A stretch of 64,000 bases of DNA from a virus: the IMG/VR virus record IMGVR_UViG_3300033144_005375, positions 1 through 64,000 of that record, one strand, 5' to 3'. Below the pieces are notes generated by a model. The model searched no databases and was not told where the DNA came from. It worked only from the letters and a program-made list of their open reading frames with translations. The first letter of the stretch is position 1. Every line of letters begins with the position of its first letter. The position numbers were made by a program, and so were the translations under genes. This document shows, piece after piece, positions 1 through 43,873 of this stretch.

Positions 1-37
1 AAGTCCCAACGAAAGGACGCTTCTCGATGTTAGACAT
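1..37 (-). CDS. N-terminal fragment of the next tail/baseplate gene (runs off the window edge)
   Basis: ATG at 37 just after the stop of the 483-aa ORF, reading MSNIEKRPFVGT; continues the operon. Confidence 0.45.
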   Translation of the reverse strand, partial: MSNIEKRPFVGT

Positions 38-39
38 GG

Positions 40-1491
40 CTAGAGGTTTCCTCCTCTTGAGGTCCGCCCCGGCGCCAAGAAAACGTTCGGGGCGACTTCC
101 TCCCCCTGAGACGGGTTTCGTCTCGATTGGAACGGATTACACTGAGGGTCCAAGATGCACGTCGCAGAAGCGCCCCCAACACCGTCCGGAATCGTCTGGG
201 TGTAAGTGGCGTTCGCGCCTTGTCCAATGATCGACTCGAACTCCGCGTTGACCCGAGTCTGGAACTCCTCACTGGGAGAGGGGGTCGGGGATTTCCACTT
301 CTGGATCTCACCCGCCTGCGCACGGTCAAACATGAACGAAACGACAAAATCGAAACTGAACTCGACACCGCCTTGCTGCTTGTCTTCGGTGTACTGGTAC
401 GAGAAGTTCTCGAAGTTGCCGACGTAGACCCACTGGTCATACGTGATCTCGATGCTACCGATGAACAGGTGTGCTTCGGACGGCCCGCCCCCAGCGCCAC
501 CGCCGTCGTAGATGTAGCCGTTGTTGCGATAGAACGCGAACAGGCTCATCAGGTTCTGCCACGCGATGGAGTCCCACTTCGACGCGTACTGATAGCCGCT
601 AGGCTCGTCAGTAGCCGTCGGCTGGAGACCATCATTTGTTCGCTGAACTTCCCCGGCCCCTCCGACAGCACCGACCACGAAACCACCGGATTTCCCGGTC
701 ACGTTGAGACGCACCTGCTCTTCGCCCCAGCTCTGGAAAATGTAGTTGAACCGGTTGCGATCCGTGTAAATCTGCTTCTTACCGTACGTGATCGTGAGCT
801 GCTCGGGATTGATCAACAGGGTGAGCGGGGGAGCGGCCAGCATCTTGTTGAGCTGAACGAGCACATCACGGGCTTGGGCCAGGTCCGAAAACGCGGGCTG
901 ATTCGCCGAACTGCCCTCGATCTTGTCGGGGTTGAACTTCTCACCGTTGCCCGCAATCAGGTCGTCCGGTCGTGAAACCCCGGACCCTTGTGTGTCGCTG
1001 CTCGGGGAGAAACTCCGGGCATCGAACGAAGCTTGAGCCTTCAACTGTCGGCTGAAATTGTTGTTCGCCGCCTGCGCGGTCTCGATGATGTTGATGTTCT
1101 GGTTGGGCGCGGGACGACCACCGAGAAGGGCATTTCGAGCATCTTCAACCTCTTGCGCTGTGGCCAACGGCGGGGTCTCTGCGAACCGTTGCTCGACCAC
1201 CGCGAGCTGGTTCAGGGCGTCGTCAAAAACCTTCCGAAGATGCGGGTCGAAGGGCCCTTTCGTCACCGCGGCCCCCTGTCCCAACAGGGCATTCACAAGC
1301 GTCGCTGGAGGGCGCACCCGAAACGTGAAAGGAGACCCAAGGTTGGGGTCTCGAAGTTTCTGGTTCGTCCCATCGACACCCGCAGACTGCGACCCACGAT
1401 TTTGAGGTCTGAAATGGGGCCCATACCGCAGCCCCCGATAGTTCGAGAGCGGCTGGATGCCGGGGTAGTCTTCTTCGGTAAGGTCCGCCAT
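40..1491 (-). CDS. putative baseplate/tail tube initiator-like protein (483 aa)
   Basis: C-terminal LLINPEQLTITY...QSWGEE...Y.GNFENFSY...FSFDF domain, paralogous to the 285-aa neighbour; lies downstream of the tape measure gene. Confidence 0.6.
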   Translation of the reverse strand: MADLTEEDYPGIQPLSNYRGLRYGPHFRPQNRGSQSAGVDGTNQKLRDPNLGSPFTFRVRPPATLVNALLGQGAAVTKGPFDPHLRKVFDDALNQLAVVEQRFAETPPLATAQEVEDARNALLGGRPAPNQNINIIETAQAANNNFSRQLKAQASFDARSFSPSSDTQGSGVSRPDDLIAGNGEKFNPDKIEGSSANQPAFSDLAQARDVLVQLNKMLAAPPLTLLINPEQLTITYGKKQIYTDRNRFNYIFQSWGEEQVRLNVTGKSGGFVVGAVGGAGEVQRTNDGLQPTATDEPSGYQYASKWDSIAWQNLMSLFAFYRNNGYIYDGGGAGGGPSEAHLFIGSIEITYDQWVYVGNFENFSYQYTEDKQQGGVEFSFDFVVSFMFDRAQAGEIQKWKSPTPSPSEEFQTRVNAEFESIIGQGANATYTQTIPDGVGGASATCILDPQCNPFQSRRNPSQGEEVAPNVFLAPGRTSRGGNL

Positions 1492-1497
1492 GTCAGA

Positions 1498-2355
1498 TCA
1501 CACTCCCGCGAAAGGGTCCAAAAGCCTGGACGCGTCTGGGACACGAGCGGCAGCAAGTTGTTGTTGCTGGAACACGCGCTCGGCACTCATAAACGGATCG
1601 ACGATAGGGTCGCGAACAAGGACCAATGCAGGGTTCAAAACCCCAGTAGCAAGACCGGCCGCAGCGGCCAGATCCTCCGCACTCGTCTGAGAAATCGCTT
1701 GTGCATCAAACAACGTCGTTGGTGCTCGATCGAAACGGTCGTTGCGGGTGGCGATGTCCGAACTACGCCAACGCAGGATTTCCTCGTCGATGATGAAGCG
1801 TCCGCTCAGCTCGAACATGTAGGGCTTTTGGGCGGATTCGGTGACGGTGAACTGCCCATCGAACCATCCGATGTGCACGCCACCGTCGAAAGTCATTTTG
1901 ACCTTGCCCTGCACTACGATGTTACCCAGCGAGTCGTAGATGGCCCCGTTGTTGTGGAACAGCGACAACAGGTCGAGGTACTTGTCGTAAGCGATCGTCT
2001 GGCGTCTTCCCTGAGTTCCTGAACCTCCTGTGATGTTCGACAACCCCGAGTAAAGGCGCATGAAGCCTCCCGTCGCTGCGGTGAACGAAATGTCCTCGGC
2101 CGCGTCCCCCCAGTGGAACTCAACGAAGCCACCTCGAGTCTGGGTGCGCTCCGTCTGTTTCGCGTACGAGAACTGCATCGAGCGCGGGTTAACGTGCATC
2201 ACGAGCTTCAACCCTTCCGGCAACAAACTCGTCTGCCGATCCGACGCTTTCACCACATCGAAAATCACGGGACGGTGCCCTCGACGAAGGTTGCCGTAGT
2301 CGGGATCGTCCCCCAACTCCATGAGGGGCTGGAAAATCGGAGTCTGTTCAGGCAT
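1498..2355 (-). CDS. putative baseplate/tail tube initiator-like protein (285 aa)
   Basis: VNPRSMQFSY...EFHWGD...GWFDGQFTVTESAQKPYMFELS pattern typical of tube-initiator-like proteins; directly follows the tape measure gene. Confidence 0.6.
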   Translation of the reverse strand: MPEQTPIFQPLMELGDDPDYGNLRRGHRPVIFDVVKASDRQTSLLPEGLKLVMHVNPRSMQFSYAKQTERTQTRGGFVEFHWGDAAEDISFTAATGGFMRLYSGLSNITGGSGTQGRRQTIAYDKYLDLLSLFHNNGAIYDSLGNIVVQGKVKMTFDGGVHIGWFDGQFTVTESAQKPYMFELSGRFIIDEEILRWRSSDIATRNDRFDRAPTTLFDAQAISQTSAEDLAAAAGLATGVLNPALVLVRDPIVDPFMSAERVFQQQQLAAARVPDASRLLDPFAGV

Positions 2356-5300
2356 GACCGAGCACCTTCATCACGCGCATGACTTCGGTGTAGACCTTGT
2401 TCAGATCGCCGCCGTAGATGTTCACGTTCACAACGCCTCCGGCTCCTCCGGCTCCTCCGGCTCCTCCGGCTCCCCCCATCCCGAAGGCGCCCCCAGGCTT
2501 GAACCCCATAATGGTGTCGTTTGGATCCGTGATAATCGGCGCCATCCCAGGACGGAGCAGGAAGTCTCCTGCGTGCCCAGCCCCATCCAGAGTTTCTTCC
2601 GTTCCTTCGGCAGCCTTTGCAGTAGCTTGGGTGTTGCGGTTGATCTCATTCAGGTCCGCCCACATCCCATCGATCAGGGTTTCGAGCTCGCTCTCGTTGG
2701 CCAGCTTAGCGACCTCACGGTTAATGGCTTGCTCGATGACTGGGAATGCCTCTTCCCAGTTCAGGCCACCTTCCTTCGCCGACAGGGCAGCGCGTTCGGC
2801 CGCTTTGCCGATCCCCAGAGACTGATAACCCCCTATGCCGGCAGCTTGAGCGGCGTTGAATCCCACTTGGTGGGCGGTCTCTCCAAAGGCACCAGCATCC
2901 GCAGCGTCTTCATAGTTGTCAGCAAGAGTTGGCCAGAAGTTGTCCATCTCCTCCTTCATTTTGAGGTTCATCTCTCGGGCAGCGTTTTCATCCAGGGTGT
3001 TAACCGAAAGGTCGTACCCCTGGTCCCCCAGCGTTTTTTGGAGTTCCTGCAAGACCTCGGTCTGCGTCATCCCTTCCGTGTCCATGTTCGCCAGAGTCTG
3101 TTTGGCGATGTCATTCACCTCCTGCATCCCCCTAAGCGTTGCGTCGGTCTCTGAGAGGAGCTTGATCTTGGCCTCAAAGTTGGCCTTCATGAGAGGATCG
3201 TCCGTCTCCTCCATCGCCGCCCGAATCCCCTCCATGAACTTCGCGTTCTTATCCAGGTGCTTCTGGATGTCCTGGCCCTCCACGAGCATCCGGTTCTGTG
3301 CCCCGACACGAGCCTGCACTCCGGGGTCCTCCTTAAAGAACGGATTCGATCGCAAAAAATCCATCCAAAAGCCGTAGACGGTGTTGTAGATCTTCTCGAG
3401 CCATTTGAGCATGTTGGCCTCCATCACGTTGGCCAACTTCTCGGTGGAGTGGGCAATCTGTCGCGCGAGCTTGATGTCTTCTGAAACAGCCTCCTCCTCA
3501 GCTTTTTTGTAGCGATCGTTCTGCGCAAGCATCAGGCCAACCTCATCCTGAATTTTGGCGCCCGTCTCAACCTCCCCAGTGGCCAAGTCCGCGGTAGCAC
3601 CAACGATCTCACCCGTCGCCGTTACCGTCGCTCCGTAGAGCTCCGCCATCGACATCTGCTCTGCCTTGGACAGCTTGCGACCGTCCTCCTTCACCTCTTT
3701 TTGGATGCGCGTCAGAGCATTCATATCCGCCGCAGTGCCGCGAGAGGCGTCCACCAACGCCTCGAAGGCTTTGCCCGTCTTCCCGGTAATCTGCTCTGCC
3801 GCAGCTCGTTGGGCGGGCCCTTTGCCTGCAAACTCATGAAGCATCTCGCCACCGAACACTTTGCTTTGCGTCTGCACAGCCAAAGTCCCCGCAGGCCCCA
3901 GGTCGCTCATCGCGTTCACCATGGCACCGAGATCCCCGTTTCCGGCTTTCGCGGTTTCGACAAGGTTATCGAGACGTTGGATCAATTCCGGCGGGTAGCC
4001 CCCGGCTTTGAAATTCGCGAGCATGGCAGTCCGTCCCTCTTCGGTCGCCCCAGCAAGTTTCGCGACAAGATCCTCCCCGCTTGTAGCGCTCCCCTCGTAC
4101 CCGGATTTTTTGAGATCCTTAAAAATCGAATCCGCGTTTGCCAGAGCCTGGTCTGCGAAGACCCTCTGCATCTCGTCCTGACCTGTCGTGAAAATCGTTT
4201 TAAGACGGTCACTGGTCGAGGCTTCGGTGAACGCATTCGTAAGTGACTTGAACAGCTCGGCTCCAGCCGTCTCGCCCAAGATGTTGCCCAAGAACTTGAG
4301 TGTCTTGGCAGCCTCTTCGACTCGCACCGCGTAGGCCCCCATCCCAGAAGTCGCCTCCATGATGGTGCCGACAAAACGCTTCATCGAGAACCCAGACAGG
4401 ACCGCTTCCTGGCGCACTGCGGACAGTCCCTCGTACACGCGCTCGAGGTCTTGCCCGAAGTCGTTGGCCCACCGACTTTGCAGCGTGCCCATCTCAGCGA
4501 TGCTCATCCCCATCAGCTTTGAGTACGCCACCACGTTCTCGGCAGCGTCCCCGTAGTTTTCAAGGTGCTTTGCTCCGCGCGAGATTTCGTCTTTCACCTT
4601 TTCGAATCCGCGACCGAACTCGTTCAAGGCACCGACCGCAGCGAACATGTCGTCCGCCTTAACACGGAAACCACCAGCCGCACTCGCGGCTTCCAGGATG
4701 TCCCCGCGCATCTGTTTCAACTCAGCCCTGAATTTGTCACCGGCCTCCCAAGCCCGACCACCGATCCCCATGTCCGAAACGGTGCCCGTCTTGAGGATGG
4801 AGTTGTTCATCTCAACGATGCGGTCGTTGAGATCCATGAACAGCTTGATCAACATGAGGACCGCACCCGCAACGGCAGCGAGGGTCGCCACGGTTGCTCC
4901 GATGCCTGCCATCATCGCGCCCCTCCCGGCCATTTTACTGGCCGCCCCTGCACTGTCCCCTTCCTTGCCCTCCCCGGCATCTATTCGATCTCGCATGCGC
5001 TGAGCACTCTCCTGCCTGGCTCGGCCTGCTTCCTGAACGCGCCCTCCCATCTGACGCCCGATGTTGAGGTACCCCGAAGGGTCCTTCATGTGCATCGCTT
5101 GGCTGATGCCGCTGAAAGTGTCCTTGAGATCGTCCCCTTGTTTGGCCCACGTTCGAGCCGACCGCTCTTGCATCGACTCCCAGGCATCCCCTTGGGCCTT
5201 GATCTCACGCTCCATCCGACGAGTGCGCTTGTCCAGCAACTTGTCGAGTTTGGCCGCCGCTTCGTAGTTGCCCGCTGCCAGCTCCTTGGTGAATTTGGAG

Positions 5301-9397: not shown

Positions 9398-11995
9398 TCA
9401 CCGACGAAACACCAAAAGAGGGTCTGCCCGAAGAGCTTTCGATCTCAACCTACGCACAGGCATGTACACAGGTGGTTGGATCGAAAACCCAATCGCCGCG
9501 GCAAGCCTTACGGCCTCATCCGCCAAAACAAGGCCATCCAAAGGCTTGGCTGGAAGATTCAAAACCAAATGCCCCCCTGAACGCAACCGTGAAAAAGCCG
9601 TCTTGATTAGAGGCGCCAGAAAAGCGCCCACCCAGTCGTTAATGTTCGAGTAAGAGAGCGCTTTTTTTGAACTCTCTCCATACACCTCCAAATCGAAATA
9701 CGGAGGGGACGTAAACACCAAATCCAAAGGCACCTTTGGGTCAAAAGTCTCCGCGCGGGCATGCACCAATTTGCACTTCTCTGAACAACTCAGTGCTTCC
9801 GCCAGCGCACGGTTGCCTTCGATAGTAGCAGGCTCCACATCCGTTCCGATGTAAAGGCCCATACCCGAGGCCATCACACCAAAAAGACGACCCCCGTATC
9901 CGGCACACGGGTCCCACATCACGCCTCCAGGAACGCCATAACGATCACATACGAACTTGGTGACCCCAGGACGGAACACGGAAGGAGTACGGCAAAGCAT
10001 CATCAGAGCCTTCAAAACCCTTGGACCGGTTGTTGGGTGCCCCGCATTGAGCTGAACCTTGATTGCAGATTTCAGCTTGGTATCGTCTTGCCAAGCTTCT
10101 CGTAGGCTAAGCGCTCCCCGGTACCGGGCATCCGCACGGTTCGGGAAAAACGAAGCACACACCGTAGTTCCGCGATACGTGTACGGTCGAACAAACCCCT
10201 CGGGGTCTACGTGCATCGTCTGTGAGCTTAACTTGGTGAATTCCGCTTTGGTTTTTTTGGAAGGCTCAAGCTTAGGGAACCCCTCCTCCCTCAATCGTTG
10301 AAACACGTGGTCAATGTCCTGCGCGCGTAACTCCGGGTTTTTGTTGGCCCACAAAGAAGCGTCTCCCCCAAAAAGCTTTTTCCAGAAACGCACGTCATGA
10401 ACAGGGTCCTGATATCGGACCACCTTGACCTCGTAACCTAACTTCCGAGCTCGGGCAATTTTGAACCGGTCAAGTTCTTGAAGACGCTCAAACTCCTCAT
10501 GGGTTTTATGCCAAGACTCGATGAAGTAGAAGTGCTGTTCCCCATGGGCCTCAAGAATGAGAGACTTCGCAGAAAAATACCCATCAAAATGAAATAGGCG
10601 CCCGGTCATCTCATTGAAAATTCGAGGGTCTGTCCACTCCGACTCATACTGGGTTCCTAGGGCCGAGGCAGCGTTATCCAAAACTAATTTCTGCCAACCC
10701 AACCTACTACGTGTTTTCAGACCTAGGTCCGCACAGTTACGGCGAATTTGCCACTGCGCACAATTCAATGCCTTAGCGGCTGCCGCTGCGATCACGCGTC
10801 CCTCTTTATCCCGAAAAGGGCGAAGCTGGAGTTCCGTCAATACCAGCTTGTTTGCAGGGATAAACCTTTGTCCTGCTCGCAAAGCTGTAAAAGGCGCTTC
10901 TGGGTGTTCTTTGCAGTAGCGCTCAAAATCATGGGCAGATCGTAGATGCGAAGTCAAGTTCTCAGCACGGTGCCCACACTCTCGACAAGACACATAGTCA
11001 GCAGGCTCCTTTTTCCCTTTCCACAAGATGAGTTCGTCTTCTGCTTTGCAGTCATCACAACGCAAGTCATGAAGGGACCCCGCAAATAAAGAGACCTCAA
11101 GCTGCTGACCACAAGTTGGACAGTTCACCTCTTTCTGCGCTCCTTTCCAAAAGTCATTTTTCGCACGGCCCTCTAAGGAGGCGCTTAACCGCTTCTGTTC
11201 GACACGTTCAATGCGCCAGCAAGCCCCAGGCCATTTGCGAACATAAGAAGAAGGGGTCATGTCGTGGGCAGTTTCAAGATGTTTCCACAAGTTCTTCGCA
11301 CGATGCCCACACTCTCGACAAGACACGTGATCCGTACCAAGGTCTCCCAGCTTCTCTTCTGCTCTCTCACTCCTCCATGCTTGATGTTCTTCATCTTGAG
11401 CAGAGTGGAGATGGGCGGTTAGCCCTCGAGAACCAACGCACATCAAACCACAAATAGGACACGCGGTATCCGCTCCCCGACGCTTTTGATCACAAGGAGC
11501 ACAGAAGAAGTGGTGACGTTTGGCCGCGGAAATCGCAGACACCTCCAAGTCAGTGCCGCAAGTCTCACAAGGAACCTCGACCTTTCGGACTTGATGTTTC
11601 TGTCCTTTATGCTTCTTAGCGTTTTCAGCCGACCGGATTTTTTGTAACCGGGATCCTCGTGCCCGCACGTTTTGGTCCCCGTGTTCCGCTCCCCACCATT
11701 CTCGAATTTTCGCATAGTGCACCCCTAGCCGAAGCGCCACTTTCTTCATGGGTTCTTCCGTCGAAAACGCACTCAACGCCTTAGCTCGAACTTTAGGATC
11801 TGCTGCGTTCCCCGTCTTGGATTTAGCTAATCCACGGAGACGATTTGCGCGCTCTCGAACGCTGTCTTTCCCAAACACCTCTTTCCATGTTCGAGTAACC
11901 CGATCACGACCAACACCGATGTGCTTGGCCGCTACAGCCACAGCATCATCGGTGTTGAACGCGTCAAGAATCTTTTGACGAAGCTCCGGGGACAC
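9398..11995 (-). CDS. zinc-finger / PD-(D/E)xK-like nuclease / amino-methyltransferase fusion (homing-endonuclease-like insert, 865 aa)
   Basis: repeated CxxC and C2H2 fingers; FDGY...LILEAHGEQH nuclease-like motif; DPCAGYGGRL SAM-binding motif; TSPPY catalytic motif; AT-richer than flanks; separates sheath from tube. Confidence 0.75.
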   Translation of the reverse strand: MSPELRQKILDAFNTDDAVAVAAKHIGVGRDRVTRTWKEVFGKDSVRERANRLRGLAKSKTGNAADPKVRAKALSAFSTEEPMKKVALRLGVHYAKIREWWGAEHGDQNVRARGSRLQKIRSAENAKKHKGQKHQVRKVEVPCETCGTDLEVSAISAAKRHHFFCAPCDQKRRGADTACPICGLMCVGSRGLTAHLHSAQDEEHQAWRSERAEEKLGDLGTDHVSCRECGHRAKNLWKHLETAHDMTPSSYVRKWPGACWRIERVEQKRLSASLEGRAKNDFWKGAQKEVNCPTCGQQLEVSLFAGSLHDLRCDDCKAEDELILWKGKKEPADYVSCRECGHRAENLTSHLRSAHDFERYCKEHPEAPFTALRAGQRFIPANKLVLTELQLRPFRDKEGRVIAAAAAKALNCAQWQIRRNCADLGLKTRSRLGWQKLVLDNAASALGTQYESEWTDPRIFNEMTGRLFHFDGYFSAKSLILEAHGEQHFYFIESWHKTHEEFERLQELDRFKIARARKLGYEVKVVRYQDPVHDVRFWKKLFGGDASLWANKNPELRAQDIDHVFQRLREEGFPKLEPSKKTKAEFTKLSSQTMHVDPEGFVRPYTYRGTTVCASFFPNRADARYRGALSLREAWQDDTKLKSAIKVQLNAGHPTTGPRVLKALMMLCRTPSVFRPGVTKFVCDRYGVPGGVMWDPCAGYGGRLFGVMASGMGLYIGTDVEPATIEGNRALAEALSCSEKCKLVHARAETFDPKVPLDLVFTSPPYFDLEVYGESSKKALSYSNINDWVGAFLAPLIKTAFSRLRSGGHLVLNLPAKPLDGLVLADEAVRLAAAIGFSIQPPVYMPVRRLRSKALRADPLLVFRR

Positions 11996-12041: not shown

Positions 12042-15000
12042 CTAGGCGCCCAGATTACTGCGAAGATTGAAAGTTATAACGATGTATAAAAGGGGAAATA
12101 CAGGCTGGTAGAATGCTTCCACCTCGACGATGGTGGGATCGTTGGTCGTACGAGCCTGGATCCCGGTGAACGCCGTGATGATTTCCTGGTTCTTGAGCGC
12201 CTTCATCGTTGTCGAAAGCTGACCCTCGATTTGGGACAGAACGCCCGGCAGGAACTTGATGCCAACGAAGCGATCGAGGTCCCGTCGAGACGCACGCTGC
12301 ACCTCGTCCGCGATGGTGATCACGGTCGGCAGCTTCGTCAGAATGTTCGACGGGTCCGTGGTGAGGCCCTGACGGACCCGAATCACGGTGCCCCGCTGGT
12401 CAAGGATGGTGACACCCTGGACAGCGATCTGGTTCTGTTCCACCGCATCCAACGTGCGTGCCAGAGCATCGAACCCAACAATGCGTGCCCGTGTCCACGG
12501 GGTTGCCACATCGATGTTCGGGCTCGCCCGGTTGGCAGCCATGGCCGCAGCCAGGAACGTGCCGTCCACCAGGAACTGCTTGTCGTTGCCGAGAGCATCC
12601 TGGATCGTGAGCGTCACGATATCCGGGTACACCAGCCGGATGCGGGTGTTCTGGATCTGCTGCGCAATCCCACCAACGTCCGTCGGCTGAGTGCCCGACG
12701 AGACTCCGATGATGCCCGTACGCTCGGCCCGGAAGCGAATACTGGACTGAACGTCGCAGTGGTTCGACAGGGCAAAGAACAGGTCGATGTCATCACCCTT
12801 GAGCGGGGTGATGGTATCGAGCACCGAACCGCCAGGCAGCGGCCCACGAAGGTCGTTGAGCGCATCGATGTACGAAGCGGTGCTTGCCTGGTTGCTACCA
12901 GGAATCTTGGGCACCTGATTGATGGCGATGACCACCGCGCCGTTCAAGAACGCCAGGAACGCTGCCAGAGAAACCGGGTTGTCCGGGTTGATCTGACCGT
13001 AGTTCCGCTCCACCACCCGTTGGCTGGTGAAAAGCAGCGTCTGGAAATCAGCTTCCGTCTTGGAGTAGTTGTAGGTGATGAAGTACGAATCACCCACCGC
13101 CGGCTCCTGACCGCCACGATCGAAGGTCTCGATGATGGCCGTGTCGCCCGTCGGGATCGTGGACCCCTCAGTGTTGGCCACGGTGACCTCCACGCCGGGG
13201 ATCGAGTTGATCGGCACGTTGGCATCCGTCGTCACCAGTTTGCGCACCTCGAAAGTGAAGTAAGCGCCTGCACCCGTCGGGTAATCAGCCCCACCATCAC
13301 GCTCGAGGATGGTGAAAATCAGACCGGTAACCACATCGCGGTAGCTCTGACCGAGGACGCCGTCCTGACCCACGCCGTTGTTGAGGCAGGAGGTGTTGGC
13401 CGAACCGGACCCGTCGATGGGATCCGAGCTTGTGACGTAGAACCCCTGGAAGCCCGTCTCACCGGACGCGCCTGCACCCGCTTGTTCGAGCAACCCGGTG
13501 CCCGTACGGAGCCATGAGTCCGAAGTGGCGTCCAAGAACACGATGTTCGAGGAGGCGCCCAGACCGACGATGTTGTTGGCCTGTGACTCGATGAACAGGA
13601 ACTCCGCGTTGCTCGAGTCCACCACCTTGGCGGCCAGAGCCTGATCCGCGAACCAGGTCGCGTCGGGGCTCTGGTAGTCGAGGAGGACACCGTTGATGCT
13701 CGAGCTGTGGTGCATCATCAGAGCCGATGCCACCTTCTCGACCTCTACGGTCTCCCGATTCGCCGTGGCGTCCTCGGAGAACCCGAGAGAATCGTTAGCG
13801 TTTCCGCCATCGATCGTGACCGCCGAAGTGGTGTCCACCACCTGCGACACGAGACGGAAGCCTGCACCCTCGGGCGCGATGGCCGAAGCTGCCAGACCCG
13901 AACCGACGATGGCGGTCTGGATCTGCTCCATGATCGTGTTGGGAACCCCGATGGGCCCGAGCGGAACCGTTGCCGAGCCCGCAGCAGGAATCGCGGCACC
14001 GAATGCGTCCGTGAACACCACGGTGATGGGAGTCCCATCGATGTTGAACTTGAACACGTTGTTCTGTGGGTTCAACCCGTTGGCGCCGTAGAACTGAACC
14101 TGCGGCTGACCATCACGGTCATCCGTGTACGTTCCCGAAGGCACCTGACCGTCCGCGAAGCCAGTCTCGCCAACAAGTGACGCCGGCTGCAGGACCGCTC
14201 CGATACCCGCCTGACCAAAGGCCAGAGAAGTCAGACCCGTCTCGGTCTGTGCGTTCGTACCCTGGACGATCAAGTTGGTCTGAGCCACCTGACTCTCGGG
14301 CCGCATGGAACCGGTTCCGGGAGTGATGCGGTTGCGCAGGATGATACGGTCGTAAATCAGACGACCGCTGGTACCCGATACCGAGAACCGACGAGCCACA
14401 TCACCATCGGTGATCTTCGTCTGCTCCTGACTCGGAAGCGCATCCGTGGAGATCCCCGCGAGAACCGCGAAATCCGCTCCCAAACTGGCAGCATCGAGGA
14501 ACTCGAAGATACCGCCGCCGAGACCGGAACCACCCGTGAGGGTAGCTGCGGAGACCGGGAGACGGACCCCATCGCTGGAGATCAGCGTGATGAAGTTCCC
14601 CTGGGGCCCAGGATCGGCCGCGGTGATGTCCACCGTGGACGAAGTGCCCGAGCTGTTGTCCGCCGTGACCAGAACATCGAGCCCGTTGAGGGGATCGGTG
14701 ATCGCCGTCACGATGGTTGTACCCACACCCACGTCGGTCAAACCGCCGCCGAACGTCGCACCCGAAAGCGGGAGACGGACGGGATTGGAGCTGGCCATCG
14801 TGATGCCGTTGCCCAGAACACCAGGCACGTCAGCCCAGATGGTCACGATGGTGGAGGTCCCACCTGCGTTGTTCGCCGAGATGTCGGCTGCCAACCCGTT
14901 GCCCAAATCGTTGACCGCCGCAGCGATCGAACTGGCCACCGAGAAGTCTGTGCCCACACCACCCGCGAGGGTGAGGCCAGCCATGATCAGACGGATCGAG

Positions 15001-18000
15001 GTCGAACTCGTCGTATCGATGATGTTGCCGGAGTTCCCTGGCGTCACCGCGGTCATCGTCACCACGTTGATCGCTGCCAGCGCAGTCACGGTGACGACGA
15101 TGCCGTTACCAGCATCGTTGATCGCAGCCGCGACGGAGAGCGCCACGGTCGTGTTGTCTCCGATACCACCCAACAGGGTGGCCGCGGAAAGTGCGATGCG
15201 AACACCACCGGTGGACTCTGCCATCGTGATGCCGTTGCCCACCGTACCTGGTGTGAACGCATCGATATCGACCGTAGCCGAGGTGCCACCCGTGTTATCA
15301 GCGAGGACACCACCGAGACCGTTGGCGGCATCCAAGATCGCCGCCACCAAACTCGTGGCTGCGGAGATGTCGTCGCCCACACCACCGGTGAAGGACGCGC
15401 CCGAAAGGACGAACCGACCCGCTGCCGTGGTGCTCAGGGTGAGCAAATTGCCGGCCGCTCCGGGAATGACCGCCGTGAGATTCACGGTGTTGCCAACCGC
15501 AACTGCGGTGGTAATCGTGTCGAAGGCATTGGCAACATCGTTGATGGCAGCCGTGGCGTCCGTTGCCGCAGTGAGATCGTCACCGATACCACCCGCCAAT
15601 GTTGCGGCACCCCAGGTGATTCGAGCCGGCGCGGTCGAAACCGTGCTGATCGAGTCGCCTGCAAGCCCAGGCGTAAGGGCCTGAATATCAACTGTGGCCG
15701 AAGCACCGGCCGTGTTGTGTGCCTGAACGAGACCCGTGAGTCCGTTGAGGACATCCGAGATCGCGGCCACGATGGCCGTGGCCGTGGTGATCTCGGTTCC
15801 CACGCCAGCGATCGTGGCTCCGAAACCACCAGCGGTGGTCACGGTTCCGTCAGAGCTCATGTTGGTGATGACGTTGGCAAACGCGCCCGGAACCGTCCAG
15901 GTCAACGTCACATCCGAAGGACCGGGGCCCACCGCGGCGCTCATGAACGTCGCGAAGGCATTGGCCGGATCGTTGATTGCCGAAGCAATCTCAGCCGCGA
16001 TGGCTGCCGTGGTACCGAGCGTCTCGTCGTAGTCATTCGCACCAGAGATACGAGGACCGCCCGCCGGAGTCAGCGGGAATGGCCCACCGTTGGCCGCACC
16101 GGTGTCGATGGTGACGGTTGCGCTCGAGGGAGCTGCCGTCACGACCAAGGTGTCAGTAGCCTGAGTACCAGCGTCGAAGTTGAGACCACCAGGAGTGGTC
16201 ACATCGTCAGCCGTGAGTGCGATGCCTCCGATGGTGATCGTGTCACCGTAGAGGACACCCGTGCTGGGAGCCAACGAATCAGCCACGACGACCATGGCAC
16301 CGAGCGAACGCGTACCCGCATCGAAATCATCCGAACCGGGGGTACGAGCACCTTCGACCGGAGTCAGCGGTGCGCCATCGATGGTCACCGTGTCCGCCGG
16401 AGTTACCGGGAACGGAGCGATGGTTTCGGGACGAACACCCATCGTCATGAAGTCGGCGAGGGCCGATGTACCGACGTTGAAATCGAGACCGCCTGGGGTC
16501 AGCACGTTGCTGGCCGTCAGGATGACGGGACCACCGCCCACTGCGGAGGTATCGACGGTGATCGTGTCACCGTACTCGACCGAAGCCAGGGTAGCGGTGC
16601 CAGTGGCTCGCGTTCCTTCGTCGAAATTGAAACCACCAGGAGTCTGAGCTCCCAGTGCGGTCAAAGTGACGCCGTCCACCACGATGGTGTCGCCCGGAAC
16701 CGGACCAACCACCGTGAGGCTGCCCGTTGCAGCGGTGCCCTCGTTGAAGTTCAAACCACCAGGGGTCTGAGCGCCAGCCGCGGTCAGGACCACAGGTCCG
16801 CCACCAACAGCAGTCGTGTCGATGGTGATCGTGTCACCCGACTGGACACCCGTCGCAATGACGGTGCCTCGAGCCTGTCCGGTGTCGTAGTTCAGGCCAC
16901 CCGGAGTGACGCCCAGCGAACCGGTGAGCGTGATGCCGCCGATCGCAATGGTGTCGTTCAGGAGGGACCCGACGTTCGTGACGGTGCCCGTGGCGAACGT
17001 ACCGAGGTCGGTGTCTGCACCTTGGAAGGTGAAGCGAATGCCACCATCAGCGTTTGCCGTGGCAGTCACATCGATGCCGTCGTACGCAGCCGGGAGGGCC
17101 GCGATGGCGGTGTCGATGGCGGTGTCAATGGCAGCCGCCAAGAAGTTCGGCGAAACATACGTTCCCGGTGCGATGGTCGCCGTGACAGGACCGGTCGAAC
17201 CGTTCGTGATGCCCGTGTAGTTGAACACGAGCTGGTCGTACTCGCCGGCCGTGATGATCGTGGTTCCAAGGAACCGAGTCACACCATCGTAGTAGGCTTC
17301 GTTGCCGGTGAGTTTCGCCTCGGCGTTGATCGCCTCGACGTACGCATCCGCATCGACACCCGTTTGACCAGGCACGTTGACCGTGACGACGACGTTGTCC
17401 ACCGTGAACGACACGTTGTCGTTGATCCCGGCCAGGATGTCGTACGTGGTCTTGCCCGAATCGTCGGTGTACTCGATCTCATTGCTCAAAAGAGACGCGT
17501 TGAAACCGAGACCGGAGATGCCGTGTGGGGCCGACAGATCGATACCTGCCGTGCCACCCGCCAGCAAAGTGCTGTCGATGGTGAACCGAGCCCGATCGGA
17601 CTCGCTTTCCACGAAAGCGTAGGGGCCGGAGCCGGCCACCGTGAACTTGGCGATCGTGGCGTCCTTATCCGCGAACTGAACGGTGACGGTCTCCTCGACC
17701 GGACCATCCGTCGAGCCCTCGAAGTGGACATCAGGGGTGATCTCGGAGCCCGAGGGGAACTGGATCGTGACGCCAGTGAGCGCCGGTCCCTTGGAACCGA
17801 ACTTCGGCGTGTAGATCGGATTCCCGTTGCTGTCGAACAGGAAGTAGGACCCAATACCGGAAGGACCGCTGACCTGGACTTCGACCGTGTACTCCTGATC
17901 GACCAGGATGTTGTACCAGAAGGTCGCGAAGACCTCAGCACCCACGGGCACCGAGTTCTCGAGGGTGATCTCGACCCCGTTCACCTCAGTGACGTTGACT

Positions 18001-19508
18001 TGACCACGCTGGAGAGCGTCTTGGATCCCGAAGCCCCAGTACGCCTTGACGAGATTGGGGTTGTTCGTGGGAAGGTCCCGACGATTGTTGCTGATCGACA
18101 GGAAAGTTTCGGTGCCAAGCGGTGTGTCACGACCGTTACCCGTGGTGGGCTGAGCCGGCAACGTGAACTTCGTGCGATCTTCGATGGGCGGCGTGACCGA
18201 ATCGTCGATGACGACATCAGTGGAGGCCAAGAACCAACGGTTGTCGATGAGCAGACCACTGATCTGCGTGGCACCGAAAGGAGGAGCTCCCGTGCTCGTG
18301 ATTCCCGAAGAAATCAGGAAAGCGGTTCCCCAGACGACGAGGTCGTCCTTGAGGATGAAATCCGCGCCTTCGATGAAATCGTTGTTGAGCGGAACGATGC
18401 CGCACCGGATGACTTCCGTGACGTTGATGTTCGCCAGGTAGTCGAAGGTGTCCTGCCAGGTGTTGAAGTAGTACTCGATCGTGACGCTGGCACCGACCTC
18501 GGGTGCGAACGGAAGAGTCACGGCCCGGTTTTGACCATCAACCTCGGTCGGGATGACCTGGATGCCATCCACCCGAACCGTCACTTTTGACGTATCGGTG
18601 GTGGTGATGCCGCCATTGGTGCCATCGACGATGGGACCGTTGAACGTGAAGTAGGTCTGGTTGCGGTTGGTGTCTTGACCCTGCGTGAAGCCCAAGATGA
18701 CGTTGGAAGAGCCGTCACCCATGAGCAGATCGCGGTCTGCAACGAGTCGAACAGCCGTGAGGCCGAAGTTGTTGGTGTACTCCGAGGCCACCAAGGAGGT
18801 GCCCGTAGCAGCACCATTGATCAGCGAGACAATGGTGGCAGCGGTGACAGAGCCCGTGGGGAAGACGGTTGTGACGATCTGCTGAGTAGCCAGCGTCGAG
18901 TCAAAGTCCACGGTGACACTGAACTGGTTGGTCTCCGAGGTGAACTCGTACTGGTTGCCGATCGCACCATCGAGGATGGCGCTGATCTGAGTCGTCTGGT
19001 TCGACAGGTCATCAGTGACCAGCGTGTCCGTGCGCTTGAAGAAGTACGTGATCCGCACATCGTCCCCAAAATTGGGGGCGGTGCTGATCTCGATGACTCC
19101 AACGTCTGCGCGGGCCACGCTCAGGACCACGTCGGCCTGACCGTTGATCGTGACGAAGATCGAGCTTGGGTCTGTGGCGATGATGCCGGCGCCGTCCCCG
19201 TTGGTGATCGGGAAGTTGCGCACCTGGATGCGACGACGCTCACCGTTGAAGTCACCAAGGAGGACCTCACCCGTGTCGGTGATCTGAACGACCGAACGGC
19301 CGGTCTCGTCTTCTTGTGGGACCTGCTGGTCTACCGAGCTCGATGAGCCACGGATGATCTCGAGGTCTTGCTGTTGGAGAAGCTCATTGCCCGTCCCGAT
19401 GAGTACCGGAATGCGTACACCAGCCAGCACCGCAGAGACAGGGCTCTGGAATAGCGTTCTCGTGTAAATTCCTGGTGGCGAATAAATGTTGCCCGGAAAA
19501 TCTGCCAT
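12042..19508 (-). CDS. contractile tail sheath protein with very large insertions (2488 aa)
   Basis: N-terminal YSPPGIYTR...VLIGTG; C-terminal core with QGVTIL, VRQGLTT and VEVEAFYQPVFPLLYIVITFNL; upstream of the tube gene. Confidence 0.9.
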   Translation of the reverse strand: MADFPGNIYSPPGIYTRTLFQSPVSAVLAGVRIPVLIGTGNELLQQQDLEIIRGSSSSVDQQVPQEDETGRSVVQITDTGEVLLGDFNGERRRIQVRNFPITNGDGAGIIATDPSSIFVTINGQADVVLSVARADVGVIEISTAPNFGDDVRITYFFKRTDTLVTDDLSNQTTQISAILDGAIGNQYEFTSETNQFSVTVDFDSTLATQQIVTTVFPTGSVTAATIVSLINGAATGTSLVASEYTNNFGLTAVRLVADRDLLMGDGSSNVILGFTQGQDTNRNQTYFTFNGPIVDGTNGGITTTDTSKVTVRVDGIQVIPTEVDGQNRAVTLPFAPEVGASVTIEYYFNTWQDTFDYLANINVTEVIRCGIVPLNNDFIEGADFILKDDLVVWGTAFLISSGITSTGAPPFGATQISGLLIDNRWFLASTDVVIDDSVTPPIEDRTKFTLPAQPTTGNGRDTPLGTETFLSISNNRRDLPTNNPNLVKAYWGFGIQDALQRGQVNVTEVNGVEITLENSVPVGAEVFATFWYNILVDQEYTVEVQVSGPSGIGSYFLFDSNGNPIYTPKFGSKGPALTGVTIQFPSGSEITPDVHFEGSTDGPVEETVTVQFADKDATIAKFTVAGSGPYAFVESESDRARFTIDSTLLAGGTAGIDLSAPHGISGLGFNASLLSNEIEYTDDSGKTTYDILAGINDNVSFTVDNVVVTVNVPGQTGVDADAYVEAINAEAKLTGNEAYYDGVTRFLGTTIITAGEYDQLVFNYTGITNGSTGPVTATIAPGTYVSPNFLAAAIDTAIDTAIAALPAAYDGIDVTATANADGGIRFTFQGADTDLGTFATGTVTNVGSLLNDTIAIGGITLTGSLGVTPGGLNYDTGQARGTVIATGVQSGDTITIDTTAVGGGPVVLTAAGAQTPGGLNFNEGTAATGSLTVVGPVPGDTIVVDGVTLTALGAQTPGGFNFDEGTRATGTATLASVEYGDTITVDTSAVGGGPVILTASNVLTPGGLDFNVGTSALADFMTMGVRPETIAPFPVTPADTVTIDGAPLTPVEGARTPGSDDFDAGTRSLGAMVVVADSLAPSTGVLYGDTITIGGIALTADDVTTPGGLNFDAGTQATDTLVVTAAPSSATVTIDTGAANGGPFPLTPAGGPRISGANDYDETLGTTAAIAAEIASAINDPANAFATFMSAAVGPGPSDVTLTWTVPGAFANVITNMSSDGTVTTAGGFGATIAGVGTEITTATAIVAAISDVLNGLTGLVQAHNTAGASATVDIQALTPGLAGDSISTVSTAPARITWGAATLAGGIGDDLTAATDATAAINDVANAFDTITTAVAVGNTVNLTAVIPGAAGNLLTLSTTAAGRFVLSGASFTGGVGDDISAATSLVAAILDAANGLGGVLADNTGGTSATVDIDAFTPGTVGNGITMAESTGGVRIALSAATLLGGIGDNTTVALSVAAAINDAGNGIVVTVTALAAINVVTMTAVTPGNSGNIIDTTSSTSIRLIMAGLTLAGGVGTDFSVASSIAAAVNDLGNGLAADISANNAGGTSTIVTIWADVPGVLGNGITMASSNPVRLPLSGATFGGGLTDVGVGTTIVTAITDPLNGLDVLVTADNSSGTSSTVDITAADPGPQGNFITLISSDGVRLPVSAATLTGGSGLGGGIFEFLDAASLGADFAVLAGISTDALPSQEQTKITDGDVARRFSVSGTSGRLIYDRIILRNRITPGTGSMRPESQVAQTNLIVQGTNAQTETGLTSLAFGQAGIGAVLQPASLVGETGFADGQVPSGTYTDDRDGQPQVQFYGANGLNPQNNVFKFNIDGTPITVVFTDAFGAAIPAAGSATVPLGPIGVPNTIMEQIQTAIVGSGLAASAIAPEGAGFRLVSQVVDTTSAVTIDGGNANDSLGFSEDATANRETVEVEKVASALMMHHSSSINGVLLDYQSPDATWFADQALAAKVVDSSNAEFLFIESQANNIVGLGASSNIVFLDATSDSWLRTGTGLLEQAGAGASGETGFQGFYVTSSDPIDGSGSANTSCLNNGVGQDGVLGQSYRDVVTGLIFTILERDGGADYPTGAGAYFTFEVRKLVTTDANVPINSIPGVEVTVANTEGSTIPTGDTAIIETFDRGGQEPAVGDSYFITYNYSKTEADFQTLLFTSQRVVERNYGQINPDNPVSLAAFLAFLNGAVVIAINQVPKIPGSNQASTASYIDALNDLRGPLPGGSVLDTITPLKGDDIDLFFALSNHCDVQSSIRFRAERTGIIGVSSGTQPTDVGGIAQQIQNTRIRLVYPDIVTLTIQDALGNDKQFLVDGTFLAAAMAANRASPNIDVATPWTRARIVGFDALARTLDAVEQNQIAVQGVTILDQRGTVIRVRQGLTTDPSNILTKLPTVITIADEVQRASRRDLDRFVGIKFLPGVLSQIEGQLSTTMKALKNQEIITAFTGIQARTTNDPTIVEVEAFYQPVFPLLYIVITFNLRSNLGA
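14525..16998 (-). repeat. seven N-half repeats followed by seven C-half repeats (nested domain array) within the sheath
   Basis: 7 x [A.GT.T...GDT.TI.G..LT....TPGG.NF..G], then 7 x [..A..I.AAIND..NG...V.ITA..PG..GN.I......GG]. Confidence 0.8.
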
Positions 19509-37566: not shown

Positions 37567-39249
37567 TTACGTCAAGAATTCAGCCAACCGTGTTTTCACG
37601 TTCCCAGGAACGGTCTTGACCTCGGATTCCCAGATCACCAGGCACTCGAGCCCAACCTCAGCGTACGCCTCGATGAGTTCTTGCTCGTGCTCCTCGGGCC
37701 ACATATCGGTGAACTTTTCACTATGCCAGTAGTCCCCGTTGACTTCCACTACCTTGCGGAGATCGCGAAAAGGGTGATCAGGGACCGGTCCGCGCAGCAC
37801 AAAATCAGGGTTCTTGTGTCGCCCTAGCCGCGGGAGCCATCGCCAAAACCTCCGATCTCCCGTGTACATGAGCCGAGGTTCGAGCTCTTGGACTAAGCGT
37901 TCCGGAACGTTTGGGCCTCGTTGATTGGCCTGGGCATGCAACATCAGTCGAGCGTATTCCCGATCCTGCATCGGGTGCGTCATCCCGTAACGCTCAACCA
38001 GGTCCTCAACCGTCTCGGCGTCCTCGTCGTACGTGGGGAATTCGTGGCCTACTTTGGAAAAGCACTCCCGCAGGATCTTCTCCTTCACCCGCGGCCATGC
38101 AAACGGGTTGTCGTCTCCCCGAAGAACCGGACGCTTGCCTACCAACGCTTCTTGAATCTGGACATAGAGCCGAGATCCCCGCGAGAAGATCTCGGGATCT
38201 CCATATCGTTCAGTGTTTGTCCGACCAGTCTTCCCTCGTGTTTCTTTGTCTTGCTGGGGGTTCTCAACTCCCCACCGGTCCAACATCGTACGCATTCGAC
38301 GAAACCGCGCCACGGCACCAAAATCACGCACCATCCACGCGATACATATCTGCCGGTGACGCTTCATCTGCGTGAGACTTGTACTCTCGTGGCCGCACAG
38401 GCACAGCTCAGGGACCTCTGTGTTAGGCCACCCCTCACAAATCGCCTTGTGGCGACTCGTGACCTTCGTGAAAGCCTCGTCGCAGTGAGGGCAAATCTCG
38501 TAACTCCCAGAAGCAATCAGGGCTTCTCGATGACGCCGCTCACGCTCGCCACGTTTCCGCGACAACTCCAGAAACCATGCAGGAGCCCGTAAGAAAGACC
38601 GCGCCCCGTGGCGCTCCAAGGTGGTCTGCTCGGTACGTGCCCGAATCTCAGGTACCTGCTGGGGATTCTCGGCGCCGTGCCGCTCCTTCATGGTGCGCCG
38701 GATCTTGGTTTTGATCGGTTCAGAGGCGAAGACGTTCTCGGCCCCGTACCGCTCGAGGTTCGTCTTGGCTCGGCGCCGCTTCACCGCCTTCGCCTGAAGA
38801 TGGTGATCGACGCCGTACTTCTTCTGCGCGGCCTGACGGGTCTTCTCTTTAACCTCGTCACTTTGACCGACGTTATCGACGCCGTACTTCTTCTGCGTCG
38901 TCTTCTTACGCTTGGCGCCTGACGACCGAGCAACGACAGGAGCCCTGGGGAACTGAGCTTCGTACTCTTTCCGTTTCATGCCCTCGTGGGCCCGTTTGAG
39001 ATGATCACTCAGACGTTTCACACGAATTTGTGTGCCCTCAGCCGCACAGAGAAGGCACCCGACGTAGTCCTCGTTCTCGACCTTCTCAGAAGCCCACAGG
39101 CCGCGCTGAAAGTGCCTGTCGAAGTTGAACTCCGACGGAGACACCCCAATCACCTCGTCCCATTTGGAGCAGCCGTTCGTGTGCTTCGGGATAGCCTTGG
39201 AAGACGAAAGGACTTTCTGACAAGCGGGGCAGCACACTACCGAAAGCAA
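37567..39249 (-). CDS. putative homing endonuclease (zinc fingers, (K/R)YG.EN repeats, Vsr/PD-(D/E)xK-like C-terminus, 560 aa)
   Basis: KYGVDN/RYGAEN/RHGAEN/RWGVEN repeats; NPDF...VVEVNGDYWH...LVIWESE. Confidence 0.7.
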   Translation of the reverse strand: MLSVVCCPACQKVLSSSKAIPKHTNGCSKWDEVIGVSPSEFNFDRHFQRGLWASEKVENEDYVGCLLCAAEGTQIRVKRLSDHLKRAHEGMKRKEYEAQFPRAPVVARSSGAKRKKTTQKKYGVDNVGQSDEVKEKTRQAAQKKYGVDHHLQAKAVKRRRAKTNLERYGAENVFASEPIKTKIRRTMKERHGAENPQQVPEIRARTEQTTLERHGARSFLRAPAWFLELSRKRGERERRHREALIASGSYEICPHCDEAFTKVTSRHKAICEGWPNTEVPELCLCGHESTSLTQMKRHRQICIAWMVRDFGAVARFRRMRTMLDRWGVENPQQDKETRGKTGRTNTERYGDPEIFSRGSRLYVQIQEALVGKRPVLRGDDNPFAWPRVKEKILRECFSKVGHEFPTYDEDAETVEDLVERYGMTHPMQDREYARLMLHAQANQRGPNVPERLVQELEPRLMYTGDRRFWRWLPRLGRHKNPDFVLRGPVPDHPFRDLRKVVEVNGDYWHSEKFTDMWPEEHEQELIEAYAEVGLECLVIWESEVKTVPGNVKTRLAEFLT

Positions 39250-41042: not shown

Positions 41043-41735
41043 CTACGGGAAGACCGTGCCGGTTTCGTCGTAGACCCCGACAGCCGACCCCGTGGTGGGG
41101 ACGCCGAGCACGTTGTCGTACGTGAAATTCGCGGACTTGAGCAGCGAGATATTGCCGTTCAAGTTCGAGACCTTGAACCGACCAATGTCGTAGAGCGGCG
41201 TGTAGGTGCCTTGCACGAAAGCGCCAGCGCCTCCGTCAAAATCACCAGCGCCGTCAGAGATCGCCGCACCCGCCGGAATCACGTACTGATTGCCCGCCAA
41301 GACGCTCAAAAGCTCGCTCAGAACACCCGTCGAGCCTCCACCGGTCAAAGAGGTGCCGCCCACAACAGCCGCCAGGACGACATTCACAGCCGCGAGATCC
41401 AGAATGGTGCCCGCCTGTGCGATCACCACGAGCGCCGCCGCAGCAGTGTCAGCTTCGGTACCGCTGAACACGGCAGAAGTCGCAACACCAGTCGTGTCGA
41501 TGTTGCCAATCAGATAGGCCGCGACACCTGTCAGATCGACGGCCGCAACGAGCGGAGGACCGGCCGTAACACCAGCCGCGATCAAAGGCTGCGGGATGTT
41601 GTGGATGTACCCCGTCTGGCCAGGACCAGGCGTGTAGATCTGGTTCCGGCTCGAGGTGTTCGGCCAAAGGTCGACCACCTGGAGAGTCCCAGAGGGAATG
41701 TCAGTCCGACGCATGATGAGAAACATTTGGGCCAT
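41043..41735 (-). CDS. virion-like paralog D (230 aa)
   Basis: IMRRTDIP.G.LQ..DL.PN.S.RN...GQTGY family N-terminus. Confidence 0.7.
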   Translation of the reverse strand: MAQMFLIMRRTDIPSGTLQVVDLWPNTSSRNQIYTPGPGQTGYIHNIPQPLIAAGVTAGPPLVAAVDLTGVAAYLIGNIDTTGVATSAVFSGTEADTAAAALVVIAQAGTILDLAAVNVVLAAVVGGTSLTGGGSTGVLSELLSVLAGNQYVIPAGAAISDGAGDFDGGAGAFVQGTYTPLYDIGRFKVSNLNGNISLLKSANFTYDNVLGVPTTGSAVGVYDETGTVFP

Positions 41736-41755
41736 TGTCTTGTCTCCTTGGGTTT

Positions 41756-43864: not shown

Positions 43865-43873
43865 CGTGTCTCC

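Follow-up and report, generated by a model that had tools for sequence, protein, structure and literature searches.

We analysed a window of 64,000 nucleotides of viral DNA (positions 1 to 64,000 of IMG/VR virus record IMGVR_UViG_3300033144_005375, a record of 82,295 bp with an estimated completeness of 16%), in which a single open reading frame (ORF) of 2488 residues on the minus strand is, judged by sequence similarity, the tail sheath gene of an uncultured huge phage. With a probability of roughly 0.88, its product is a contractile sheath protein in which the hairpin of a parent domain carries an appendage of 825 residues, made up of seven homologous outer domains nested one within another. 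The C-terminal core of the protein (residues 2100-2482) matched in tblastn searches the 'tail sheath' gp178 of Bacillus phage G (28.5%, E 3e-25), a gene of Phrappuccino that is likewise annotated 'tail sheath' (E 4e-19), and the tail sheaths of Rhodococcus phage Finch, mycobacteriophages and Gordonia phages. The 'tail sheath' of Tunturiibacter phage Tunturi_5 matched the whole length of the protein (31%, E 1e-39), and an unannotated gene of the uncultured 485-kb phage LR745208.1 showed 46% identity over 66% of the query (both tblastn). Close relatives of the gene are located on contigs of up to 618,736 bp. The Tunturi_5 homolog is situated downstream of a 'tail terminator' and upstream of a 'DNA ejection protein'; among the neighbours of the sheath gene within the window, no named tail PHROG was found. 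A sequence search of the PDB with the whole protein gave no match at E <= 1. The protein as a whole contains 24 lysines against 250 acidic residues.

The Repeat Block

Residues 836-1660 consist of seven N-halves followed by seven C-halves, here named N1 to N7 and c1 to c7 in chain order (Table 1). A first-pass annotation, made from the sequence without database searches, had described exactly this succession at 14525-16998 with a junction between the two runs near 16020; translation and alignment with MAFFT confirmed the succession and placed the block at 14529-17003 and the N7/c1 junction at 16022/16023. The N-halves (residues 836-1162) are 41-52 residues long and share the consensus G-T-x-T...GDT(I/V)T(I/V)(D/G)G..LT...TPGG(L/F)(N/D)F(D/N)xG, and the C-halves (residues 1163-1660) are 69-72 residues long with the consensus A..I.AAIND..NG...VTA...V.(I/L)TA..PG..GN.I.L.S....L..SGATL.GG. 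Hidden Markov models (HMMs) built from the 7 + 7 segments recovered seven N-halves and seven C-halves in the sheath itself. Pairwise identity is 30-53% among the N-halves and 31-52% among the C-halves, and one HMM detects all; host and guest domains are, on these alignments, homologous, and the nesting is one of self-nesting. Long and short variants of the halves occur as the first-pass annotation had it, with c2, c4, c6 and c7 of 72 residues, c3 and c5 of 69, and an extra 'DT.AVGGGP' loop in N2, N4 and N7. A search for tandem repeats in the DNA found none of unit length, and the repeats are therefore old. The block contains no lysine, 12 arginines, 56 aspartates, 9 glutamates and no cysteine, which amounts to a net charge of about -53.

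Predicted Structure of the Block

Two pieces of the 2488-residue protein were folded, residues 745-1700 and residues 966-1447. For the first (956 residues; model residue r corresponds to protein residue r+744), AlphaFold2 was supplied with 43 orthologs as alignment rows and returned a model with a mean predicted local distance difference test (pLDDT) value of 88.4, with 578 of the 956 residues at 90 or above, values under 50 only beyond model residue 929, and a predicted template modelling score (pTM) of 0.47. Structural alignments of this model (VIA) repeatedly matched a single known domain to two distant pieces of the chain, such that about 80-100 aligned residues stretch over up to 830 residues. 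Within a few residues, the ranges of these matches begin where N(i) should start and stop where c(8-i) should end for six of the seven levels, and the parent domain fits its expected limits as well. For N7-c1, the match is 8kee_A (model 370..489, Z 11.0, root-mean-square deviation (rmsd) 2.0, 93 aligned residues, 29% identity); for N6-c2, 9r62_I, 8tsh_E and 2gs8_A (322..564/565, Z 3.8-4.9); for N5-c3, 7nmm_A (269..634, Z 4.2) and 2ia0_B (268..633, Z 4.0); for N4-c4, 8erm_B (222..706, Z 4.6); for N3-c5, 9ndy_H (183..774, Z 7.7, rmsd 2.4, 79 aligned) and 8e4g_P (181..767, Z 8.1); and for N1-c7, 9gnz_S and 9u4r_AC (both 91..921; for 9gnz_S, Z 5.9, rmsd 2.9, 96 aligned).

The second model, comprising the four levels from N4 to c4, reached a pLDDT of 94.6 and a pTM of 0.80 and repeated the ranges 149..272, 101-103..342-344 and 1..482 (VIA). 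In this model, 8erm_B again matched N4-c4 (1..482, Z 4.5), and 9ndy_H matched N6-c2 (103..342, Z 7.2, rmsd 2.4, 80 aligned). The pTM of the four-level piece suggests that neighbouring levels are predicted to pack in a defined way. When the same model was compared using Foldseek, no match to the whole model was obtained (best query TM-score (TMq) 0.18), only matches to single domains, and no solved structure fits more than one level. The first-pass annotation had asked for a structure prediction that would show whether N- and C-halves pair; in the models they do so as mirror images, N(i) with c(8-i), at six of the seven levels. Each domain of levels 1 and 3-7, and the parent domain too, is predicted to be discontinuous, its two segments flanking the next domain.

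Coevolution of the Two Halves

Evidence apart from the models was derived from rate covariation, for which pairwise distances among the 44 orthologs were computed for each of the 14 segments, the common trend was removed, and the residuals of N-halves and C-halves were correlated. Mirror pairing gave a mean r of 0.335 and ranked first among the 5040 one-to-one pairings, and with gaps ignored all seven row maxima fell on the mirror partner; pairing in the same order ranked 4448-4478. In column covariation (mutual information with average product correction, MI-APC; effective number of sequences (Neff) 28.4), mirror pairing ranked 4, 6 and 11 of 5040. The identity matrices of the N-halves and the C-halves correlate at r 0.865 under the mirror mapping and at r -0.09 under the same-order mapping. 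Conservation drops from base to tip, from 0.66-0.70 at levels 1-2 to 0.55 at level 7, and the values for N and C agree level by level. The two halves of a level thus evolve together, and the nested pairing, in which N(i) and c(8-i) form domain i, is supported by both the AlphaFold2 models and covariation.

Rate covariation cannot separate pairing within a chain from pairing between chains, and would also be obtained if the N-halves of one sheath subunit paired with the C-halves of another, locking the lattice by domain swapping. Split halves with long excursions are a classic substrate for swapping, and sheath subunits are known to exchange strands in their core. The models, which are of monomers only, nevertheless close every level and the parent hairpin in one chain with high confidence, and small proteins with the same matched runs of N- and C-halves (P0121-P0126) are not sheaths; we regard domain swapping as very unlikely.

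Table 1. Positions in the window of the sheath gene, its segments and two paralogous genes.
Feature	Position	Strand	Residues	Partner	Basis
Tail sheath gene	12042-19508	-	2488 in total		single ORF (ORF listing)
C-terminal conserved sheath core	12063-13211	-	2100-2482		region matching annotated sheaths
Parent domain, N-part (hairpin strand ending ...RFTFQGADTDLG)	17004-17276	-	745-835	parent C-part	AlphaFold2 model; structural matches
N1, level 1 (outermost)	16878-17003	-	836-877	c7	structural ranges; rate covariation row maximum c7
N2, level 2	16737-16877	-	878-924	c6	covariation row maximum c6, r 0.37; otherwise elimination; pLDDT ~90
N3, level 3	16614-16736	-	925-965	c5	structural ranges; covariation r 0.63
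N4, level 4	16470-16613	-	966-1013	c4	structural ranges; covariation row maximum c4
N5, level 5	16314-16469	-	1014-1065	c3	structural ranges; covariation row maximum c3, gaps ignored
N6, level 6	16167-16313	-	1066-1114	c2	structural ranges in both models
N7, level 7 (innermost)	16023-16166	-	1115-1162	c1 (contiguous)	structural match 8kee_A
c1 (innermost)	15807-16022	-	1163-1234	N7	alignment; structural ranges
c2	15591-15806	-	1235-1306	N6	alignment; structural ranges
c3	15384-15590	-	1307-1375	N5	alignment; covariation; structural ranges
c4	15168-15383	-	1376-1447	N4	alignment; covariation; structural ranges
c5	14961-15167	-	1448-1516	N3	alignment; covariation; structural ranges
c6	14745-14960	-	1517-1588	N2	alignment; covariation; elimination in model
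c7 (outermost)	14529-14744	-	1589-1660	N1	alignment; covariation; structural ranges
Parent domain, C-part (GIFEFLD...)	14409-14528	-	1661-1700	parent N-part	AlphaFold2 model; same structural matches
Paralog of 349 residues, one intact unit (N+C contiguous)	41756-42805	-			sequence; PHROG 165 over residues 126-210
Paralog of 348 residues, one intact unit	42818-43864	-			sequence; PHROG 165 over residues 62-210

Insertion Site and Nesting Depth among Sheath Homologs

The parent domain was matched by six chains (Z 4.0-6.8) over model residues 1-6..943-955 (VIA), which indicates that its N-part folds with residues 1661 to about 1690 on the far side of the block. In the homologs L001, L011 and L012, the flanking strands (...RFTF... 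/ ...EF(L/I)...) are linked by a short turn with no unit there, and in the homolog L010 exactly one unit occupies the same hairpin turn that holds seven in the sheath of the window. Since homologs lacking the block join the flanking strands directly, the 825 residues are an insert in the parent-domain hairpin, and both ends of the insert must meet. The sheath of locus L012 has one unit about 200 residues upstream of the usual hairpin (residues ~835-935 of its frame), in another accessory region, and the unit can therefore occupy more than one site in a sheath.

A word-indexed search with the block recovered 44 proteins of 2420-2489 residues that are 49-100% identical in the block. It had been suggested that nesting depth be counted in homologous sheaths, where unequal numbers of N- and C-halves would speak against nesting; all 44 orthologs possess seven C-halves and an N block of seven segments, and in 33 of them the HMM called all seven N-halves. 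A wider census with the N-terminal 800 residues yielded 748 sheath homologs, the best 120 of which comprise 41 without the unit, about 33 with one unit and 44 with seven; P0117, with two units in tandem (NCNC), is the one such protein among these 120. In a phylogenetic tree of the C-terminal 780 residues, sheaths of depth seven and depth one are interleaved at three places with supports of 0.89-0.99, the sister pairs being P0027 (seven) and P0053 (one), P0036 (seven) and P0051 (one), and P0025 (seven) and P0045 (one). This pattern suggests that the insert might have been exchanged repeatedly as a cassette at the conserved hairpin, rather than gained once in the distant past. The idea that P0045, with its one unit, derives by collapse from a form with seven was dropped, as its unit is not close to any particular level.

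The Unit in Other Proteins

An intact single unit had been reported in the genes at 41756-43864 of the window, and it is real: the innermost unit of the sheath (N7+c1) matches 42227-42478 with E 1.7e-6. The two genes belong to a family of four tandem paralogs at 41043-44539 (230, 349, 348 and 221 residues) with 0, 1, 1 and 0 units, respectively. PHROG 165, 'tail sheath', weakly matches the unit part of the 349-residue (E 0.0028) and the 348-residue paralog (E 0.0002); outside the unit the family gave no Pfam or PHROG match, and a PDB sequence search with the 349-residue paralog returned no useful match. P0200, a homolog of 786 residues from a Joint Genome Institute (JGI) metagenome, shares the N-terminus of the four paralogs and has, in the matching position, a nest of five levels (NNNNNCCCCC).

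With the block as query, a full phmmer scan (1.84 billion representatives), together with a search with P0121, produced a further 187 proteins that bear the unit; the way in which this sample was obtained favours proteins with several units. If N and C are read as opening and closing brackets, 155 of the 187 proteins are balanced on automatic calls. The most frequent word is NC (60 proteins), followed by NNCC (33), NNNCCC and NCNC (17 each), NCNCNCNC (11) and NNCNCC (6, including P0221 and P0248), a branched form in which one unit hosts two tandem units; NNNNCCCC (N4C4) was read in three proteins, NCNNCCNC in two and NNNNNCCCCC (N5C5) in one. P0182-like proteins read NC-NNCC-NC. The unit acts like a plug-in module that can take up further copies of itself: NC, NCNC, NNCC, N3C3, N4C4, N5C5 and NNCNCC all recur in other proteins, virion-type ones among them, from large phage-like contigs.

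In P0125 and P0127, an NNCC nest is inserted in proteins with an S-adenosylmethionine (SAM)-methyltransferase-like motif, and the unit is therefore not confined to virion proteins. Precomputed Pfam domains of methyltransferases (PF13847, PF13489, PF13649, PF08242) are recorded for P0209 and P0236, and those of pectinesterase (PF01095) or GMC oxidoreductase (PF05199, PF00732) for the unit-bearing P0220, P0237, P0261 and P0286. Two further ORFs on the minus strand of the window may be mentioned. One of 865 residues directly downstream of the sheath (9398-11995) has weak PHROG matches to DNA methyltransferase (E 3.5e-6) and HNH endonuclease (E 1.3e-4), and one of 560 residues inside the structural region (37567-39249) matches homing endonuclease PHROGs (E 2.5e-24).

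Discussion

Several points weigh against a sevenfold nest in a sheath protein. Scans of the whole protein did not recognise it as a sheath, Pfam giving only a sub-threshold SCP_3 match (E <= 0.1) and PHROGs no family (E <= 0.01). The topology was read from the first and last aligned model residues of the VIA alignments, not from coordinates; several of the structural matches have a Z of only 4-5, which according to the tool's own warning is common by chance; and neither model has a listed match for the range N2-c6, a pair assigned in the models by elimination only (N2 and c6 both have a pLDDT near 90, and no other partner is free). AlphaFold predicted both models from a shallow alignment of 44 fairly closely related sequences (Neff ~28), and at the pTM of the full piece its overall shape is uncertain. 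When gaps are counted, mirror pairing still ranks first in rate covariation, with only five of seven row maxima on the mirror partner; in MI-APC only four of seven rows peak there; and the mirror mapping of the identity matrices ranks 30 of 5040, not first, being largely driven by N7 and c1, both the most divergent of their kind. Neither the best 120 of the 748 homologs nor 79 phmmer matches (1.84 billion representatives) included a sheath nested to a depth of 2-6, which leaves a stepwise history undocumented in sheaths. The function of the block is wholly inferred. Lastly, the HMM called fewer than seven N-halves in 11 of the 44 orthologs, and 32 of the 187 words are unbalanced, almost all with an excess of C.

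The shortfall of N-halves in the 11 orthologs could be taken to favour two independent tandem-repeat arrays, a beta-rich N array and a separate alpha/beta C array with no one-to-one pairing, their equal counts being coincidental. Tandem duplication is the simplest route in DNA to arrays of like repeats, and N-halves and C-halves do each form a contiguous run. However, in the 11 orthologs the N block keeps seven aligned segments at unchanged length, one or two of them too divergent for the HMM, and in five 'NCC' cases inspected by eye either the gap or the stretch immediately upstream holds a divergent N-half, or the protein begins at the first residue of the unit; we attribute the unbalanced words and low N calls to such missed N-halves. 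In the models, moreover, every N-half shares a domain with one particular C-half at a pLDDT of about 90, rate covariation ranks the mirror pairing first of all 5040, N-runs and C-runs are of equal length in the sampled proteins (NNCC, NNNCCC, N4C4 and N5C5), and the block sits in a hairpin whose two ends must meet. Equal numbers of N and C, as seen in many unrelated contexts, are a requirement of nesting but not of independent repeat arrays, which strike us as scarcely credible. That each sheath subunit carries seven nested copies of one domain, as the first-pass annotation proposed, is supported by the predicted topology, rate covariation, the counts of seven and seven, and the balanced words.

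According to the models and to covariation, each copy is interrupted in the loop that joins its N-half (three strands) to its C-half (a helix plus strands), and the next copy sits in that loop. The chain runs outward through N1..N7, turns at N7-c1, the only contiguous unit, returns through c1..c7 and lastly closes the parent hairpin. How this state arose is less clear-cut: 'recursively inserted' is one possible history, and matched tandem duplications of N-halves and of C-halves would give the same end state. The identity matrices, checked for an origin by duplication of a two-level nest, are only loosely periodic.

Because the sheath core is made of the two chain ends, according to PMC9230969, the stack should lie on the outside, separated from the core by at least nine levels of insertion. 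Every level would be joined to the next by two strands and adjacent levels would be packed, and the two strands per joint together with the pTM of the four-level piece suggest a stiff rod; each sheath subunit may therefore bear a fairly stiff multi-domain spike or rib on its outer face, away from the tube-binding core. A free, exposed tip is suggested by the fact that the tip evolves fastest. The 'bristled tail' envisaged earlier would be a further step: the four-level piece is predicted as a confident unit, but the direction and length of the stack lie beyond that model. PMC9230969 also proposes that accessory sheath domains aid host-surface adhesion or brace the tail, and the acidic, lysine-free block with its fast-evolving tip might likewise provide weak adhesion to polymers of the cell surface or matrix, or brace a very large tail laterally. 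A radial spike that serves adhesion or spacing seems most likely.

The main alternative is a real nest without a radial bristle, in which the rod of seven domains would follow the sheath surface lengthwise or wrap around it, contact neighbouring subunits and form an extra outer layer matched to the tail lattice. The depth is strictly seven in all 44 orthologs down to 49% identity and one or zero in close relatives, with none of 2-6 among the best 120 of 748, which suggests that the length must fit something; the predicted rigidity of the four-level piece, and the lateral bracing by accessory domains proposed in PMC9230969, would also suit such a layer. On the other hand, the tip is least conserved, as expected of a free exposed end, and intermediate depths may exist, since the count rests on the best 120 of 748 homologs. 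We consider the surface layer possible, if rather unlikely. Under either arrangement, the strict count of seven favours some length constraint.

We lean, by a little, towards a broader proposal: a virion-surface domain that accepts its own copies in one loop would build stiff appendages of set length by recursion, the sheath being the deepest homologous self-nest, fixed at seven because spike length matters. Depths of 1, 2, 3, 4, 5 and 7 and branched forms would fall under this proposal, with seven levels, or at least nine counting hosts, in the sheath. If true, length-by-nesting would be a modular principle of design that occurs in nature and differs from tandem repetition, and protein design would gain a naturally occurring scaffold in which nesting depth sets the length and every joint has two chain connections. 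The graded series of depths across natural proteins (0, 1, 2, 3, 4, 5, 7) makes it testable how a domain comes to tolerate hosting itself and how recursion arises in DNA, and the folding question becomes testable as well, as the outermost domain cannot complete before the whole chain is made. For phage biology, the proposal predicts that uncultured phages of about 0.5-0.6 Mb have tails that are unusually thick or spiked, and it defines a plug-in module common to several virion proteins.

Comparison with Known Systems

The unit is predicted to consist of a three-strand N-part, a helix and C-part strands, which superpose on solved outer domains of sheaths. The likeness to the outer sheath domain of the Mu gpL type that had been noted from the sequence was borne out by 9khy_a (Mu; Z 7.9, rmsd 2.7, 95 aligned), and the best match is the sheath of cyanophage A-1(L) at Z 11.0; further matches include 9cb9_A (Z 9.4), 4nx9_A (Z 7.4) and 5fhy_B (Z 7.3), and Foldseek, using the four-level model, gave 8kee_C (E 5.5e-5). 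The outer domain of the A-1(L) sheath (PDB 8kee, residues 91-185) and those of PhiTE, Milano, Sf14, Bas63 and Mu (9khy) have the same fold as the unit, and in all of these sheaths one contiguous stretch of about 95-115 residues aligns to one unit. Flagellin D2/D3 and FliD D2-D3 (4nx9, 5fhy, 5h5w, 9gnz; Z 5.9-7.4, 96-99 aligned), T7-like nozzle proteins and T4 gp11 are of the same fold class. The matched domain of some flagellins extends over a long stretch of chain (9au6_A 176..592, 6x80_A 172..361) and so hosts an insert, but flagellin nests are shallow, and filament and function differ from those of a sheath.

Sheaths of the 'Russian-doll' type (T4 gp18, phage 812, diffocin CD1363; Aksyuk et al. 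2009, 2011, as cited in PMC6088184) have accessory domains nested outward, and, as would be expected of the sheath described here, a conserved core is formed from the N- and C-terminal parts with the extra domains facing away from the tube. In PMC6088184, such sheaths have up to four domains of different folds, and in PMC9230969, AlphaFold2 surveys give 'five and more' domains, again of different folds, for jumbo-phage sheaths; here, a further parent domain of a 2488-residue subunit holds seven nested copies of one and the same domain. A tblastn search of 50,697 phage records with the block gave no match at E <= 1e-3 with the low-complexity filter of BLAST on, and in the literature searched we found no report of a self-nested sheath or flagellin domain, or of the unit, though a relevant case might be contained in the modelled sheaths that the supplements of PMC9230969 list. 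The earlier statement that no sheath of this depth was known agrees with these searches, but a six-level nest of another domain has been published: SI3 of the cyanobacterial RNA polymerase beta' subunit contains eight hybrid-motif domains in a six-level recursive insertion, which serves as the illustrative example of complex nesting in a 2026 survey of 2.7 million classified domains (PMC13114784). Russian-doll insertion in sheaths and six-level recursive nesting were thus already known, and a sevenfold self-nest in a sheath is apparently new with respect to the papers and phage records searched. As described in PMC13114784, SI3 resembles the sheath unit in that a small domain is recursively inserted in its own domain class, giving words of the type A1-B1-C-B2-A2, and differs from it in fold, in serving transcription rather than the virion, and in having six levels with branch points. 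Domain insertion is common and deep nesting rare; with seven unbranched levels of close paralogs, in a fold different from that of SI3, and at least one host level in addition, the sevenfold self-nest of this sheath is among the deepest domain self-nestings seen so far.

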